20,000 bases of DNA from an uncultured virus (IMG/VR IMGVR_UViG_3300008113_006701) (lineage: Duplodnaviria; Heunggongvirae; Uroviricota; Caudoviricetes). The translations under genes were made by a program, and so were the position numbers. Below the pieces are notes generated by a model. It worked only from the letters and a program-made list of their open reading frames with translations, was not told the origin of the DNA and did not search any database. Within the stretch, counting starts at the first letter, position 1; the number at the start of each line of letters is the position of its first letter. Of this stretch, positions 9,177 through 20,000 are shown in pieces. The DNA lies in IMG/VR virus record IMGVR_UViG_3300008113_006701. One strand, given 5' to 3'.

Positions 9177-11434
9177 ATGAAATTTTATACTAGCGTAAAT
9201 CAGTATGGTAACAATATTCTAGTACGGGGTGTGAACAACGGCAAAAAAGTACAAGATCGAGTCAACTTTAAACCCTCACTTTTCTTCAAATCTAAAAAAG
9301 AATCCGGTTATAAATCTCTTTTTGGTGATAATCTAGAGGAATTGAAATTTGAAAGTATCAGCGAAGCTCGAGATTATGTCTCCAGATATAAAGAAGTTGA
9401 GAACTTTCCGATCTTTGGAAACACCAATTATACCTATCAGTATATCACAAAAACATTCCCCGATAATATAGAGTTTGATATAACTCAAATTAAGATATGG
9501 TCTTTGGATATTGAAACATCTGCAGATTTAGGATTCCCCGATGTTGCAAATCCAAACGAAAAAGTATTGATTATCACCATGCAAGATTATGGAACAAAGG
9601 AATTAGTTTCCTTTGGATTAAATCCGTTTAAAGTAACATCTGACAGACACACTTATATTGAGTGTAAAGATGAAGTAACACTACTAAGAAAGTTCTTAGA
9701 ATATATTTCCGAAGATCATCCTCATATTATTACAGGATGGAATGTGGAGTTCTTTGATATTCCATATCTATGTAATCGTATTACTAAAGTTCTTGGCGAA
9801 GATGAACTTAAAAAGATGTCGCCCTGGAAAGTAGTTAACGAGAAACGTATTTTCAAATTAAAGAAAGAGAACATTTCTTTTGAGGTGTTGGGTATTGCAA
9901 TTCTAGATTATTTAGATCTCTACAAAAAATTTACATATTCAAATCAAGAATCTTATAAATTAGATCACATTGCCAAAGTAGAATTGGGTAAAGAGAAATT
10001 AAACTATGATGAGTTTGATTCATTCTCCGCATTCTGGAAAGGTAATTGGCAAAAATTTGTAGACTATAACATTCGAGACGTAGAACTTGTCGACGAACTT
10101 GAAGAGAAGATGAAATTAATTGAACTTATTCTTACAATGGCNNNNNNNNNNNNNNNNNNNNNNNNNNNNNNAAAGATTTAACTGTAAACAAACTTGTTTC
10201 TAAAAGCGTCAATCTTGATGACTTGAAGGATGAAGATTATTGTATGACGGCAAATGGATATTGTTTCACAAGAAAGAAACAAGGCATCTTTCCTGAGATT
10301 GTTCAGAAGCTATTCAATGATCGTAAACAGTATAAGAATCTGATGCTTGAGGCACAGACACAATACGAAGAAACAAAAGATAAGAAATGGCAGAAAGAAA
10401 TATCTAAGTACAATAATTTTCAGATGGCTCGAAAGATTCAAATGAATTCTTTATTTGGTGCAATGGCAAATGAATATTTTAGATTCTATGATGACCGTAT
10501 TGCTGAGGGTATTACTTTAACAGGCCAATTCATTATTCAATATATTGGTAAATGTTTAAATGAGTATTTGAACAAGGTATGCGGGACAAAAGATTATGTT
10601 TATTCTTTTTATTCCGACACTGATGCCTGTTATATTACATTAGATCCGTTGGTTAAAAAATTCTATAAAGATTTATCTGGAGATAAAGTAGTAGGTATAT
10701 TGGATAAAATTTGTAAAGATAAAATTGAAGAATTCCTAATGCAATGTAGTAATGAAATTGCAGATTACAGTAATGCGTTTGAGAACAAAGTTTATTTCAA
10801 ACGAGAGGTTATTGCAGATAGAGGTATTTGGGTTGCAAAGAAACGATATGCTTTGAATGTATATAATAACGAAGGTGTTCAATATGCTGAACCAAAGCTA
10901 AAGGTGATGGGATTAGAAATTGTCAGATCATCTACACCTGAACCTATTAGAGATGGTTTGCGAAAAGCGGTTAAAATGGCACTAACAGATACCGAAGAAA
11001 ACCTGCAAGAATATATTCGTAATTTTGAAGAACAGTATCGTAAATTACCCCCGGAAGATATATCTTTTCCTAGAGGCGTTAACGGGTTAAATAAATATAC
11101 TGACAGAGCAAATATATATAAACAGGCGACCCCGATGCATGTCAGGGGAGCACTTCTTTATAATTTCTATCTTGAAAAAATGGGATTAGATAAAAGATAT
11201 GAAAAGATTAAAGAAGGTGATAAAATTAAATTTATATATTTAAAAGAGCCCAATACTATTGGTGAGAACTGTATAGCATTTAATACTGTTATACCGCCCG
11301 AATTAGATTTGAAAAAATTTGCAGACTACGAAACAATGTTTGATAAATCTTTTCTAGAACCCATGAATACAATATTGAACGGTATTGGTTGGTCGGCAAA
11401 GCCGCAAGCAACCTTAGAAGGATTATTCGGATGA
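9177..11434 (+). CDS. 43: Family B DNA polymerase (gp43), spanning a scaffold gap
   Basis: Exo motifs LDIET, GWNVEFFDIPY, ESYKLDHIA, YNIRDV; pol motifs KIQMNSLFGA, YSDTD, KKRYALN. The 3' frame is open from 10172. Motif A (DxxSLYP) is absent and would fall in the gap. Confidence 0.96.
10142..10171. other. Assembly gap (30 N)
   Basis: Run of Ns. The true gap is probably several hundred nt, judging from the missing polymerase motif A region. Confidence 0.98.
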
Positions 11435-16931: not shown

Positions 16932-17636
16932 ATGACTAAGATTGGTATAGTTGGTTTAGGTATTGTTGGTGGTGCAATTGCAAATGCTACAAGCTTTATG
17001 AATACCTCGATTGTTATTGTAGATAGTGATCCTAATAAAGGAACTCATACCTACGATGATTTAATGCAATGTGACGGAGTGTTCATATGTACACCAACAC
17101 CTCAAAGTGATGATGGTACTTGTGACGTAAGCATTTTGTTATCAGTATTAGATAAACTAAAAAATTACGATGGTGTAATTATTAGTAAGTCAACTGCTCC
17201 TATTGGAGTGTATACTGAACTAAATGAAAAGTATCCCAATCTAGTTCATTCTCCAGAATTCTTAACCGAAGCAAATGCTTTTCATGATTATGTTCAAGGC
17301 GAGTTTGCCTTTATTGGGGGACGAGTAAAAGCATATCAACGAGAAGCCGAGCGATTGATTCGGTTGACGCAACCGAATCTTAAAGTGGTAACACATTGTT
17401 CGATAGGTGAAGCAGCACTTGCTAAGTATACTATCAATACATTTTTAGCAACTAAAGTATTATTCATGAATGAAATATATGACCTTGCTAAGAAAACAGA
17501 GTGTGATTTCAACCTTGTATCTAAAATGGTTACGCAAACCAGCCCATTATATGCAAGGATTCCTCAGGTAGACACCTACCAGAGGCCTTTGCACGTAATT
17601 ATACATGGAGTATACAAAGGGTTTGATGTAAGATAG
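16932..17636 (+). CDS. ugd: UDP-glucose/GDP-mannose dehydrogenase-like protein, apparently truncated after ~17537
   Basis: GLGIVG Rossmann motif, ICTPTP, KST, SPEFLTEANA, AKYTINTFLATKVLFMNE. The expected DxRIG...GGxCxPKD catalytic segment is replaced by unrelated sequence. Confidence 0.8.
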   Translation: MTKIGIVGLGIVGGAIANATSFMNTSIVIVDSDPNKGTHTYDDLMQCDGVFICTPTPQSDDGTCDVSILLSVLDKLKNYDGVIISKSTAPIGVYTELNEKYPNLVHSPEFLTEANAFHDYVQGEFAFIGGRVKAYQREAERLIRLTQPNLKVVTHCSIGEAALAKYTINTFLATKVLFMNEIYDLAKKTECDFNLVSKMVTQTSPLYARIPQVDTYQRPLHVIIHGVYKGFDVR

Positions 17637-17654
17637 TATTTTTCTAAACTACAA

Positions 17655-17692
17655 GAACCCTCGGTACCCCTAAAGTCCGAGGGTTTCCTTTT
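17655..17692 (+). terminator. Rho-independent terminator-like hairpin
   Basis: GAACCCTCGG / CCGAGGGTTT followed by CCTTTT. Confidence 0.7.
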
Positions 17693-17716
17693 ATAGACTT
17701 TTTAATAACCTTGTGC

Positions 17717-17745
17717 TTGACAGGGTTACTAAAAGGTGTTATAAT
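17717..17745 (+). promoter_or_regulatory. Sigma70 promoter for the tRNA array
   Basis: (TGC)TTGACA-N17-TATAAT with extended -10 TG. Confidence 0.85.
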
Positions 17746-17802
17746 TAGCACATGGATCAAAGAGATCTACAATTGTTCATTAAAAATTTGCGTACCATTT
17801 TT

Positions 17803-17876
17803 CCTCTTGTAGCTCAAAGGTAGAGCACCCGGCTGATAACCGGGAGACGTTGGTTCGATACCATCCGAGAGGACCA
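17803..17876 (+). tRNA. tRNA-Ile(GAT)
   Basis: Acceptor CCTCTTG/CGAGAGG, anticodon arm CCCGG-CTGATAA-CCGGG, TTCGA, encoded CCA. Confidence 0.93.
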
Positions 17877-17879
17877 GAT

Positions 17880-17955
17880 GTCCCGTTCGTCTAGAGGCCT
17901 AGGACGCTGCCCTTTCAAGGCGGAAACACGAGTTCGATTCTCGTACGGGACGCCA
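17880..17955 (+). tRNA. tRNA-Glu(TTC)
   Basis: GTCCCGT/ACGGGAC, CTGCC-CTTTCAA-GGCGG, CCA. Confidence 0.95.
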
Positions 17956-18063
17956 TATTAAAACACATTTCAGGTTGGACAATCTTCCGGAGATTGTTAT
18001 TTGGACTTGTAGACAAGTTTTGATACTTGTCGTAGTTAAGATACGGAGTGTGTTCTAATATGG
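17953..18063 (+). ncRNA. Putative structured RNA with ~19-bp closing stem and three internal hairpins
   Basis: CCATATTAAAACACATTTC pairs with GGAGTGTGTTCTAATATGG; internal ACAATCT/AGATTGT, ACTTG/CAAGT and CGTA-GTTAAGA-TACG. Confidence 0.55.
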
Positions 18064-18067
18064 TAAT

Positions 18068-18145
18068 GTATCGGTGGCAGAGCGGTCCAATGCAAGTGAT
18101 TGCAAATCACTAAAACCGGGGGTTCGAATCCCTCCCGATACTCCA
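18068..18145 (+). tRNA. tRNA-Cys(GCA)
   Basis: GTATCGG/CCGATAC, AGTGA-TTGCAAA-TCACT, U discriminator, CCA. Confidence 0.93.
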
Positions 18146-18154
18146 ATATAATGC

Positions 18155-18182
18155 TTGACATTTATTGTACAGGTGTTATAAT
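18155..18182 (+). promoter_or_regulatory. Internal sigma70 promoter
   Basis: (TGC)TTGACA-N16-TATAAT with extended -10 TG. Confidence 0.75.
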
Positions 18183-18194
18183 AGAAATAAGATA

Positions 18195-18270
18195 GGTCCT
18201 AAAGTGTTCATGGACGCACGCTAGCTTGTCACGCTAGAAGAGTGGGGCTCGATACCCCCTAGGACCGCCA
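18195..18270 (+). tRNA. tRNA-Asp(GTC)
   Basis: GGTCCTA/TAGGACC, CTAGC-TTGTCAC-GCTAG, G discriminator, CCA. Atypical A8 and T-loop CTCGATA. Confidence 0.88.
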
Positions 18271-18282
18271 TATTTTAGAGAT

Positions 18283-18366
18283 GCCCCGGTGGTGGAATGG
18301 TAGACACGTTGGTCTTAGAAGCCAATGTCGAAAGGCGTGAGAGTTCGAGTCTCTCCTGGGGTACCA
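18283..18366 (+). tRNA. tRNA-Leu(TAG)
   Basis: GCCCCGG/CTGGGGT, TTGGT-CTTAGAA-GCCAA, long variable arm, CCA. Confidence 0.95.
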
Positions 18367-18386
18367 TAAATATGTGACAAGATATT

Positions 18387-18461
18387 GGGCTGATAGTGAT
18401 AATGGGAGCACAGGGGCTTTGCAAGCCTTTAGTCGGGGTTCGATCCCCCGTCGGTCCACCA
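18387..18461 (+). tRNA. tRNA-Ala(TGC)
   Basis: GGGCTGA/TCGGTCC with G3:U70, loop TTTGCAA, CCA. Confidence 0.94.
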
Positions 18462-18478
18462 ATAATAATGAGGTTGTC

Positions 18479-18919
18479 ATGTTACATATAATAAAATCTC
18501 TTACAGATAGTTTTTTTAGTTTATTGAATGAGGATCCTGTTAGACCGAACATTCCGACTACGGAACGAGTAGGTGATAACAAAGATATCTTTGTTCTTCG
18601 GGATACAAATGATAAAGTATTAGCAATCACATGCGTAAGTTATCAGAACAATGTTCCAACAAAAGAATCTGAGTTGTTTGAAAAAGTAAACAATCCAGAC
18701 ATTGCGGTATTTTATACGATATGGAGTTATGCACCAGGTGCAGGCAAAACGCTTATATTTGATGCAGTAGCCCACATAGAAAATAATATGCCATACATAA
18801 AAAGGTTTGTTACATTGTCTCCTAAGACAGAAATGGCAAAGCGTTTTCACTTAAAGAACGGTGCTATTGTTTTTAGAGAGAATGAAGAAACCGTTAATTA
18901 TGAATATGTCCGTGTGTAG
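18479..18919 (+). CDS. 146-aa GNAT-fold protein resembling the malonyl-CoA decarboxylase catalytic domain
   Basis: ATG at 18479 with SD GAGG (the ORF-track start overlaps tRNA-Ala). Motifs AVFYTIWS, GAGKTLI, FVTLSP, RFHLKNGA. Confidence 0.65.
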   Translation: MLHIIKSLTDSFFSLLNEDPVRPNIPTTERVGDNKDIFVLRDTNDKVLAITCVSYQNNVPTKESELFEKVNNPDIAVFYTIWSYAPGAGKTLIFDAVAHIENNMPYIKRFVTLSPKTEMAKRFHLKNGAIVFRENEETVNYEYVRV

Positions 18920-18986
18920 CGCAGTCAGGTAGCGCTCCTGGTTTGGGACCAGGCGGTCGGAGGTTCGAATCCTTTCACACGGACCA
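18910..18986 (+). tRNA. tRNA-Pro(TGG)
   Basis: CCGTGTG/CACACGG, CCTGG-TTTGGGA-CCAGG, CCA. Confidence 0.95.
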
Positions 18987-18996
18987 AATTTTTTGC

Positions 18997-19024
18997 TTGA
19001 CTTTTATAGTCAAGTTGTTATAAT
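18997..19024 (+). promoter_or_regulatory. Internal sigma70 promoter with an inverted repeat over the -35
   Basis: (TGC)TTGACT-N16-TATAAT with extended -10 TG; CTTGACT-TTTAT-AGTCAAG inverted repeat. Confidence 0.7.
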
Positions 19025-19031
19025 AAGATAT

Positions 19032-19106
19032 TCCCTAGTAGCTCAGCGGTAGAGTAGATGACTGTTAATCATTTGGTCGGTGGTTCGATCCCACCCTGGG
19101 GAGCCA
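19032..19106 (+). tRNA. tRNA-Asn(GTT)
   Basis: TCCCTAG/CTGGGGA, GATGA-CTGTTAA-TCATT, CCA. Confidence 0.95.
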
Positions 19107-19114
19107 AGTATTTT

Positions 19115-19198
19115 GGAGATGTGGCAGAGTGGTCGATTGCGGCAGACTGTAAATCTGTTCTTAACAGCACGGTGGTTCGAATCCATCCGTCTCCACCA
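19115..19198 (+). tRNA. tRNA-Tyr(GTA)
   Basis: GGAGATG/CGTCTCC, GCAGA-CTGTAAA-TCTGT, long variable region, CCA. Confidence 0.94.
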
Positions 19199-19201
19199 AA
19201 T

Positions 19202-19277
19202 GCATCGTTAACTCAGTTGGTAGAGTTCCTGCCTTACACGCAGGCTGTCGGGAGTTCGAGTCTCTCACGATGCACCA
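19202..19277 (+). tRNA. tRNA-Val(TAC)
   Basis: GCATCGT/ACGATGC, CCTGC-CTTACAC-GCAGG, CCA. Confidence 0.95.
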
Positions 19278-19284
19278 AGTTTTT

Positions 19285-19358
19285 GCCCTGTTAGTTAAAT
19301 GGTAGAACACCTGTTTTGTAATCAGGGGACGGCAGTTCGATTCTGTCACGGGGCACCA
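19285..19358 (+). tRNA. tRNA-Thr(TGT)
   Basis: GCCCTGT/ACGGGGC, CCTGT-TTTGTAA-TCAGG (U:U at 31-39), CCA. Confidence 0.92.
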
Positions 19359-19363
19359 AATTA

Positions 19364-19438
19364 CTGCCGTTCGTTCAATGGATAGGACAGCATTCTTCTA
19401 AAGTGCGAATAGAGGTTCGATTCCTCTACGGCGGACCA
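19364..19438 (+). tRNA. tRNA-Arg(TCT)
   Basis: CTGCCGT/ACGGCGG, GCATT-CTTCTAA-AGTGC, CCA. Confidence 0.94.
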
Positions 19439-19446
19439 AGTTTATA

Positions 19447-19534
19447 GCGTCATAGGATGTAATGGGGTGCGGTTGCCTCAACCTTGAGCACTCAAGGTTT
19501 TCTTGCGTGGGTTCGAATCCCACATGATGCACCA
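19447..19534 (+). ncRNA. tRNA-like RNA 1: G3:U70 acceptor, no canonical anticodon loop
   Basis: GCGTCAT/ATGATGC + ACCA, canonical T arm GTGGG-TTCGAAT-CCCAC, central hairpin AACCTTGA-GCAC-TCAAGGTT. Confidence 0.7.
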
Positions 19535-19541
19535 AGTATAT

Positions 19542-19632
19542 GGACATGATGTGTCAATGACCTGATGCTGGTCTGAAACTTCGTAATAGCATACGAGGAA
19601 GAAGTGGGTTAGATTCCCAATGTTGTCCACCA
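19542..19632 (+). ncRNA. tRNA-like RNA 2 (degenerate D arm, long variable-like arm)
   Basis: GGACA/TGTCC + ACCA, TGGG-TTAGATT-CCCA, GACC-TGATGCT-GGTC, CTTCGTA-ATAGCA-TACGAGG. Confidence 0.6.
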
Positions 19633-19638
19633 AGTTTT

Positions 19639-19721
19639 GTGCGTTTGGTCTAAATGTTAGGGCGTCATGACATGGGGCTAGAAACCTCAAGATGCGGGTT
19701 CGAATCCCGTAACGCACACCA
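19639..19721 (+). ncRNA. tRNA-like RNA 3 (AGA loop, 8-nt insertion after the D arm)
   Basis: GTGCGTT/AACGCAC + ACCA, T arm GCGGG-TTCGAAT-CCCGT, TGGGG-CTAGAAA-CCTCA preceded by an extra GTCATGAC. Confidence 0.7.
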
Positions 19722-19724
19722 AGT

Positions 19725-19937
19725 TTTGTAAGTGTCAGCAAGAGAATGTCACGCTATAAAGGTTTCTTCGAAGGACTGATATAGTAGAAGGAGACGGGTT
19801 CGACTCCCGGCTGATCTTTGGAAGATCGGCGCAGATGGTTGCTATCTGGACTAGTATCCCAAGTGACGTACCGAGTCCCGGCCGGCTTAATTACACGGGT
19901 GAATGGTTCCTATAATGATGGTGGAACTACTTACAAA
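19725..19937 (+). ncRNA. Putative ~210-nt multibranched ncRNA
   Basis: Closing stem TTTGTAAGT/ACTTACAAA plus at least six internal helices, including a T-arm mimic. Confidence 0.6.
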
Positions 19938-20000
19938 TTCATATTGAAACACATTCATCATTGGTTGTTAGGAATACAGGATTGATAATCTTGACCTACA

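Follow-up and report, generated by a model that had tools for sequence, protein, structure and literature searches.

The 20,000-nucleotide (nt) window analysed here, taken from the uncultured virus record IMGVR_UViG_3300008113_006701 of IMG/VR, closes inside an array of transfer RNA (tRNA) genes, and its last part, positions 19447–20000, holds four RNA genes, designated A to D, and the start of a fifth. We think it reasonably likely that this part is the distal portion of a promoter-driven, polycistronic tRNA operon with independent stable RNAs, processed by the tRNA machinery and of the same kind as RNA C and RNA D of phage T4. Each element is shuffled from phage to phage as a cassette of its own, and together they do not make up a single co-evolving system. 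The tRNA operons of uncultured T4-like phages and of jumbo lake phages hold several families of such conserved, covarying non-tRNA RNAs.

In the pathway that we propose, the tRNA-maturation enzymes of the host would cut A to D from a precursor. Ribonuclease P (RNase P) would cut the 5′ side of the tRNA-shaped units, 3′ trimming would halt at the encoded CCA, and the ends of D would be set by the tRNA-shaped units that flank it, an arrangement called 'tRNA punctuation'. The long stems of the hairpin cassettes, to which the fifth element belongs, would serve as ribonuclease III (RNase III)-type sites. The products would be stable small RNAs akin to T4 RNA D and RNA C.

Structure, distribution and context of element D

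The two ends of D pair to form a closing stem, P1 (UUUUGU-AAGU with ACUU-ACAAA), and the RNAalifold consensus of 29 distinct aligned copies comprises ten helices. Its parts include a long-range helix between AUGUCAC and GUGACGU, a hairpin with an invariant UUCGAA apex, a T-arm-like hairpin at 19795–19809 and two further hairpins; relatives have a GNRA-type hairpin, whose cap in the majority of copies is GGAA or GUAA. The fold is marked by covariation: over 54 pairs, 97.1% of the alignment cells are paired and 26 of the 54 pairs have changed on both sides, none of 500 shuffles scoring as high. When the partners were slid as a control, pairing falls to 33–47%. A brute-force search for further covarying column pairs (pseudoknots) was too noisy and was not used.

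The hairpin P8 (19877–19899) has a loop that begins with the palindrome GCCGGC. A palindromic 6-mer, of seven types in all, occupies the P8 loop in 120 of 123 distinct copies of D; among shuffled segments, 22.5% hold any palindromic 6-mer. In the MAFFT alignment the palindrome is in register in 112 of the 123 copies, as GCCGGC (50), CUCGAG (22), UCCGGA (21), CCCGGG (14), GUCGAC (4) or ACCGGU (1), and the outer two position pairs of the 6-mer covary, with four and three pair types. Since such a 6-mer is unable to fold on itself, and a site for a protein would hold to a single sequence, the simplest explanation is that two copies pair with each other; judging from the sequences, D probably pairs with a second copy of itself through the P8 loop.

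D is widespread. An exact 21-mer from its 5′ part located it in 42 viral contigs of 4–367 kb, and a degenerate 21-mer in at least 120 metagenome stretches. The 21-mer also occurs in two contigs of metagenome-assembled genomes (one genome each of 185,579 species), which are probably phage contigs. Neither D nor the surrounding region has a real match among 50,697 GenBank phage records (megablast, blastn), where T-arm fragments met transfer-messenger RNA (tmRNA) genes at E about 3, and nothing beyond T-arm fragments was matched by D in Rfam 15 at gathering thresholds or at E ≤ 10. Several known classes were considered for D and rejected. As a group I intron, RNase P RNA, tmRNA, Y RNA/YrlA, GOLLD, ROOL or 6S RNA it has no Rfam match (gathering or E ≤ 10); as a giant or permuted tRNA it is at odds with its internal T arm, its lack of CCA and one copy without a T arm.

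All 42 viral loci of D lie within a tRNA array in which every tRNA is on the strand of D, and in 30 of the 41 assessable ones a tRNA called by ARAGORN ends 4–7 nt upstream of it, the kinds of neighbour being diverse. The metagenome loci (n = 80) have a tRNA within 300 nt in 74 cases and opposite-strand tRNAs in none; a tRNA ends at most 12 nt upstream in 46 of 78, and one starts at most 20 nt downstream in 39 of 69. One copy was found in each large record searched. This context would fit release of D by the processing of its neighbours.

Two further observations were made close to D. In L089, L093, L106 and L110 a tRNA with anticodon CTA ('Pyl' in ARAGORN), of amber-suppressor type, follows D after about 20 nt. 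In L155, A is succeeded at about 440–530 (oriented) by a shorter RNA, of about 85 nt, whose closing stem and trailer (UUUUGUAUAG ... CUACAAAUUUAAU) resemble those of D; this RNA may be a relative of D in reduced form.

Assembled contigs from four metatranscriptome runs, each from a different study, were compared with the stretch at a likeness of at least 90%. D-like contigs are present in all four runs, with single-contig depths of 1126 (X15), 510 (X16), 412 (X19) and 223 (X20), values that sum relatives, cannot rank genes and come from RNA libraries, which can hold DNA. The summed depth over 19751–19898 is far above that of the flanks of the stretch. For C, contigs of X15 and X16 match with 0 differences, and one run has cover of B; over most of A and B there is little or no contig cover in most runs, which is uninformative either way. 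An X16 contig joins 19526 to 19719, but the shorter side of this joint spans 25 letters, at 90% likeness, and the joint was not used. The contigs hint that RNAs of the D family are transcribed and abundant. The initial annotation had allowed that the elements might be unexpressed, and the contigs that match D, C and B speak against this.

The tRNA-shaped elements A, B and C

All three elements are closed by an acceptor-type stem, contain a T arm and have their CCA encoded. An anticodon stem of 5 base pairs (bp) closed by a 7-nt loop with U33 and a purine at position 37 is present in C and absent from A and B. A 7-bp acceptor stem, a T arm with a UUCRANY loop and CCA are found in A and C; B has 4–5 acceptor pairs and the T loop UUAGAUU. 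To judge from these features A and B, which keep acceptor stem, T arm and CCA and have no proper D arm or canonical anticodon loop, are most likely non-decoding. The half that they have kept is the part that is read by processing and charging enzymes.

Element A has two hairpins, one of 5 bp with a loop of 6–7 nt and an extra one of 8 bp, as well as a canonical T arm. It is not called by ARAGORN and has no match to the Rfam tRNA family (RF00005) at E ≤ 10. Its family comprises 12 viral contigs, found by 31-mer match. Over nine aligned rows, a single compensatory change (G:C to A:U) occurs in the 5-bp hairpin, and the 8-bp hairpin keeps its stem while its loop changes; at the anticodon position the window has the 6-nt loop GCGGUU, where relatives have GCGGUUU or GUGGUUU. 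The acceptor stem, GCGUCAU with AUGAUGC, includes the pair G3-U70, which is kept in all nine rows while adjoining acceptor pairs drift to G-U. Among the 12 canonical tRNAs of the window, G3-U70 occurs in tRNA-Ala only, and this pair is sufficient for alanyl-tRNA synthetase. Because this alanine identity pair is kept, A could accept alanine; it could be alanylated by analogy with the tRNA-like domain of tmRNA, and is probably an alanine-accepting, non-decoding mimic. A carries a testable signature of alanine charging without decoding.

In element B the D arm is a mini arm of 3 bp with a 4-nt loop; a second arm, of 4 bp, carries the loop UGNNGCU, which has no U33, and the extra arm has 7 bp. It too is not called by ARAGORN and has no RF00005 match at E ≤ 10; its only Rfam match is a mascRNA-like one of 14 bits. 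Five viral contigs were found by 20-mer, and BLAST copies in L116 and G019 bring the total to seven. Across five distinct sequences, 24 pairs in five helices are 96.7% paired and 8 of the 24 have changed on both sides, again with none of 500 shuffles as high. The loop at the anticodon position is UGAUGCU, UGAGGCU or UGCUGCU, and the remainder of B is 92% conserved. Two middle letters that vary on a constant body are a poor fit to an anticodon.

Element C matches RF00005 at 51.3 bits (gathering threshold 29), although this requires a 13-nt insertion in the D region, and ARAGORN does not call it. Its anticodon-type loop is a regular one of 7 nt with U33 and A37. A 21-mer found it in eight viral contigs, with four distinct neighbourhoods, at 97.6–100% identity. 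The initial annotation had described three CCA-ended mimics; the CCA is indeed encoded in A, B and C, but the term mimic does not suit C, which is nearer to a true tRNA.

It has to be asked whether A, B and C might all decode, as tRNAs whose bodies have been remodelled (nuclease-resistant substitutes for host tRNAs, for instance) and which the finders have overlooked. C passes the Rfam tRNA threshold and has U33 and A37, and ARAGORN does overlook genuine array tRNAs (Asp in L121, a Tyr-like one in L022) and labels a B-like copy 'tRNA-???'. This explanation is nevertheless unlikely, as the loops of A and B are without U33 and a purine at 37, the loop of A being of 6 nt in the window, and the would-be anticodon of B varies (AUG, AGG, CUG) while its body is constant. 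C, for its part, would have the anticodon AGA, for serine codons, but has no long variable arm of the kind found in serine tRNAs. The canonical tRNAs of L003, moreover, cover 18 amino acids, and the array of the near-identical L005, followed further, adds Trp and Gly and so reaches all 20.

Identity between arrays is 88–91% for A, 85–99% for B, 98–99% for C and 76–88% for D, against 57–99% (mostly 60–85%) for tRNAs with the same anticodon, a comparison that is biased and inflated by the retrieval of the loci through exact words of the elements. We give very little credence to the idea that the tRNA-shaped elements are decaying leftovers of cassette shuffling, still processed and harmless. The arrays are heavily rearranged between relatives, and the block of elements is dispensable in close ones, as decay would have it; but compensatory changes maintain the pairing of arms that are not those of a tRNA, the elements recur in several lineages with different neighbours and are conserved above the adjoining canonical tRNAs, and G3-U70 of A is kept beside drifting pairs. 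That the elements might be unconserved or decaying, a possibility left by the initial annotation, is likewise contradicted by the recurrence of each family and by the covariation in D and B.

As to function, our best guess, which is a tentative one, is that the elements are tRNA-mimic ligands or decoys for host or phage tRNA-binding proteins; for D a role of its own, structural or self-assembling, is probable. Another possibility, which we put forward with little confidence, is that D would be a self-assembling RNA, forming dimers or chains by way of its covarying P8 loop and, in many copies, a second palindromic loop, and would use its T-loop and GNRA modules to act in infected cells as an RNA-only scaffold or sponge for tRNAs or for tRNA-binding host proteins, with A as an alanine-charged, anticodon-less mimic beside it. 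If true, this would give a function to the 50-year-old 'stable RNAs' of T4-type tRNA operons.

Several points weigh against the operon of processed stable RNAs, or against the properties proposed for its members. The T-arm motif is present in 87 of 123 distinct full-length copies of D, and L141 replaces the entire domain. The second loop of D, P7, is palindromic in 69 of 123 copies (ACUAGU in 46, ACCGGU in 23) and reads ACAAGU, which is not a palindrome, in 25, so that its signal is partial; the self-complementary loop of D could also have a cause other than dimerisation. The 3′ end of A is ACCA, CCCA or CUCA according to lineage, so that charging is not assured. C, with its score above the Rfam tRNA threshold and its U33 and A37, may decode as an oddly shaped tRNA. 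The high identity of the elements between arrays could reflect recent lateral spread and not function. The assembled contigs show no RNA ends, which leaves discrete processed species to be deduced. Finally, blastn found no cultured phage with D.

Array layout and assortment of the elements

Table 1. Features of the tRNA array in the window, with coordinates, strand and basis of assignment.
Feature	Position	Strand	Description
Element A	19447..19535	+	tRNA-shaped, 89 nt, without D arm; 7-bp acceptor stem with G3-U70, discriminator A, CCA
Element B	19542..19633	+	Cloverleaf with extra arm, 92 nt; 4–5-bp acceptor stem; ACCA
Element C	19639..19721	+	tRNA-like, 83 nt, with enlarged D region; loop CUAGAAA (reads AGA); no long variable arm; ACCA
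Element D	19725..19937	+	213-nt multi-helix RNA; alignment and RNAalifold consensus; no Rfam family
5′ half of long-stem hairpin cassette, cut by window end	19941..20000	+	Homology to the cassette of relatives
Five canonical tRNAs: Asn(gtt), Tyr(gta), Val(tac), Thr(tgt), Arg(tct)	19032..19438	+	ARAGORN; Rfam tRNA 49.8–65.2 bits
Sigma-70-type promoter-like site	18997..19024	+	TTGACT, 16-nt spacer, TATAAT; 11/12 consensus matches; TG before −10
146-aa GNAT-fold ORF in the array, not in the RNA set	18479..18919	+	Pfam, PDB profile, AlphaFold2, Foldseek

ARAGORN finds 12 tRNAs at 17803–19438, all with an encoded CCA as in A, B and C, and calls none in 19447–20000. Three strong sigma-70-type promoter-like sites, all on the plus strand, lie at 17717, 18155 and 18997, and the promoter-plus-spacer motif of the last is repeated at the other two and in relatives (families D15, D17). 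No terminator-like site was found in 17600–20000, where shuffles gave 1.8 ± 1.5. Co-transcription of A to D with the tRNAs is plausible because of the single strand, the strong upstream promoter and the absence of a terminator in this search. The initial annotation had reported five elements behind five canonical tRNAs and one promoter, all of which are present, and its proposal that they are co-transcribed from that promoter is thus a plausible one.

The fifth element is the beginning of a long-stem hairpin cassette. Positions 19942–19984 share 86% identity across 44 nt with the 5′ flank of the cassette that follows 'Ile(tat)' in L003, L005 and G001. The hairpin cassette of the relatives is 139 nt long, the homologue in L005 having a 20-bp closing stem (z −4.9), and a complete cassette of the same type lies in the window at 17956–18066 (z −3.9). 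Contrary to the initial annotation, the array does not end here: beyond the homologous cassette, L003 and L005 continue with Met, Met, Thr, Trp, Gly and more, and it is merely the window that stops.

The cassettes have conserved AU-rich/ACACA flanks and variable centres, and in relatives (L005, 6254–6700) five units stand in tandem with a period of 80–85 nt. Their closing stems, of 15–20 bp, have a length typical of RNase III substrates. A CRISPR-like repeat–spacer array (37-nt junction, 80–85-nt period) was considered and rejected, since the flanks pair and covary across the units and not within the junction.

The tRNA complement itself holds some irregular members. What ARAGORN calls 'tRNA-Ile(tat)', of 90–92 nt (L003 7826–7917; L005 7225–7316; many other loci), has a short D loop, the anticodon loop CUUAUAC and a long extra arm; it is a class-II-shaped tRNA with a UAU anticodon that is kept across many arrays. 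Apparently genuine tRNAs are overlooked by the same program, namely an Asp(GUC) in L121 (1351–1500), close to the Asp of the window, and a Tyr(GUA)-type tRNA with a long arm in L022 (1093–1178). Annotation of these arrays calls for caution, as tRNA finders both overlook and mislabel genes in them.

The open reading frames (ORFs) upstream of the array are those of a sliding clamp, a clamp loader, a DNA polymerase (two ORFs), UvsX and a gp41-type helicase. UvsX is 60–64% identical to that of T4-like phages of Stenotrophomonas and Xanthomonas. The viral record nearest to the window is G001, with 75% of the sampled 31-mers in common, and the DNA runs that contain the stretch are labelled drinking-water, estuary, lake, freshwater and 'fungus metagenome'. 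The window is from an uncultured T4-like phage, probably one of fresh water. The DNA polymerase is split, in that the adjacent ORFs 9177–10181 and 10223–11434 match the N-terminal and the C-terminal part, respectively, of one PHROG family.

Viral relatives were retrieved with the 146-amino-acid (aa) ORF of the array (92 in number), and 80 loci were kept. L003 is 98–100% identical to the window across A to D and has the order Arg(tct), A, B, C, D, Gln, Lys, Arg(tcg), His, Phe, Ser, Ser, 'Ile(tat)', cassette, Met onwards; in the window, the cassette comes directly after A to D. L005, L004 and G001 have identical upstream sequence, yet in these Arg(tct) is followed directly by Gln and the whole A–D block is absent. 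The Arg(tct) of the window (19364–19438) is only 82.7% identical to that of the block-less relatives (L005 5773–5847). With this divergent allele beside it, the block looks as if it had been exchanged as a whole together with the tRNA, and the sequences suggest an exchange that includes Arg(tct).

An alternative is that D and the other cassettes are selfish or mobile RNA genes, spread from array to array through recombination at common CCAAGUUU-type spacers or with homing endonucleases, and of little benefit to the phage. Near-identical elements in otherwise diverged arrays, and the presence of the block varying alongside the Arg(tct) allele (82.7% against 100%), are in keeping with this, as are endonuclease-like ORFs in such arrays (below Pfam cut-offs) and segB in T4. 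We regard it as improbable, however: it leaves the 26 covarying pairs and the conserved self-complementary loop of D unexplained, D has one copy per genome in the searched records, and D-like contigs are found in four of four RNA libraries.

Separately, two ORFs within the related array of L084 on the minus strand (404–982 and 1917–2552), beside five non-canonical elements and D, have weak HNH_3 and NUMOD3 matches below the Pfam cut-offs. They recall segB of the T4 tRNA cluster.

The co-occurrence of A to D was surveyed in 36 large viral records, of which 17 had been chosen through D. None of the 36 holds all four elements, which are found jointly only in the window and its sibling L003. D was matched in the 17 D-chosen records and in four others, B in six, A in three and C in two. 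G033 and G034, which are one lineage, have A and B with a diverged D about 4 kb away; two more records have B with D, and one has C with D. D occurs without A to C in most records, and C occurs without D in a 100%-complete genome. In another lineage the order is Asp, B, A. A lies less than 400 nt from D in 7 of the 12 A-bearing loci, and runs of odd elements stand just upstream of D elsewhere (five in L084; four, including A, in L146). The elements thus have a loose tendency to cluster, without fixed membership or order.

These results bear on the suggestion, made in the initial annotation, that the five elements and the GNAT-fold enzyme form a dedicated RNA-based module for counter-defence or translation control, for instance as decoys for anticodon nucleases. 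The elements are clustered on one strand behind one promoter and are conserved; other lineages have non-canonical runs upstream of D (L084, L146), and A is often close to D, as described above. The literature documents tRNA-targeting defences and phage tRNAs that evade them (PMC10264068, PMC11555353, PMC12851939, PMC13056530), and given such defences a decoy role is, by analogy, plausible. As a dedicated module the set is nonetheless quite improbable. The survey proposed in that annotation, of co-occurrence and order across related phages, gave no fixed set; an ordinary tRNA, not an odd element, directly precedes D in 30 of 41 viral loci; and the block is missing from the near-identical L005, L004 and G001.

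The protein partner of the proposed module is real, but it has no genomic link to the RNAs. The ORF matches the C-terminal domain of malonyl-CoA decarboxylase (MCD) in Pfam at 26.2 bits (cut-off 23.2) and malonyl-CoA decarboxylases in PDB profile searches at 7e-6. Its AlphaFold2 model has a predicted local distance difference test score (pLDDT) of 94.3, and Foldseek places it with the MCD catalytic domain (TMq 0.85), then with GCN5-type acetyltransferases, AtaT2 and others. The matches and the model mark it as a true member of the GNAT fold, with the MCD catalytic domain as the closest match. Among 13 large records retrieved with the ORF, none matches A to C and two match D (G007; G011 in part), and the near-complete ORF-carrying genomes G004 (96%) and G006 (100%) have no match to A to D. 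In the A-bearing jumbo genomes (G033, G034, G039) the ORF lies about 120–200 kb from A, and it is absent from the C-bearing complete genome G036. The idea that the enzyme works with the RNA set is accordingly not borne out, and the operon of independently assorting stable RNAs remains the reading that we favour.

Relation to known RNAs

The proposed processing has precedents. RNase P is described in PMC11143913 as cutting tmRNA, 4.5S RNA and phage non-tRNA precursors, and tRNA punctuation with t-elements is known from organelles (PMC1920247). D is likewise flanked within a few nt by tRNA-shaped units, and A to C keep the features used by RNase P and 3′ processing.

The nuclease-evading tRNAs of T5-like phages and mycobacteriophages (PMC10264068, PMC11555353) are array-encoded and have altered anticodon loops, as A and B do. 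They differ in being decoding tRNAs with point changes, whereas A and B are without canonical anticodon loops and D arms.

The tRNA-like domain of tmRNA resembles A in its acceptor stem with G3-U70, its T arm and CCA, and its lack of a D stem and an anticodon. The Rfam tmRNA model (RF00023) matches A at 18.6 bits, over the T arm only (gathering threshold 47), and ARAGORN found no tmRNA. Unlike tmRNA, A lacks pseudoknots and a tag reading frame, for which its 89 nt leave no room.

GOLLD and ROOL, which are large, ornate RNAs borne by phages and prophages, are often found near tRNAs and are hundreds of nt long. D is like them in being phage-borne, tRNA-adjacent and heavily structured, with a signature of self-association; it is unlike them in having about 213 nt and no Rfam match, and its multimerisation is deduced from the loop palindrome only. 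Homo-oligomers of GOLLD, ROOL and OLE are reported in PMC12286853. D is a very widespread RNA, recurrent in metatranscriptome assemblies, with a testable RNA–RNA self-pairing signature.

The closest comparison is with T4 itself. Its tRNA cluster finishes in the order tRNA-Arg(UCU), rnaD, rnaC, so that rnaD (species 2, 119 nt) and rnaC (species 1, 139 nt) are, like A to D, non-tRNA RNAs in a T4-type tRNA cluster, on the tRNA strand and after tRNA-Arg(UCU). The fold of rnaC, a closing stem with two long hairpins and a canonical T arm, is like A and B in its closing stem, hairpins and T arm. The lengths differ (119 and 139 nt against 89, 92, 83 and 213 nt), and T4 has no counterpart of the architecture of D or of its palindromic loop. 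No similarity to the T4 locus (L125) was found for A to C by BLAST or for D by nhmmer; neither rnaC nor rnaD is present in Rfam, and our literature search found no description of the A–D families, which is not proof that none exists. A to D are analogues of T4 RNA C and RNA D in place and kind and not members of the same families. The two T4 RNAs are classed as late RNAs and validated by Northern blot (PMC9697503), and their roles are given as not known (PMC3014915; PMC9697503). No role has been found for T4 RNA C and RNA D since the 1970s, and the present locus shows that the phenomenon to which they belong is a broad one.

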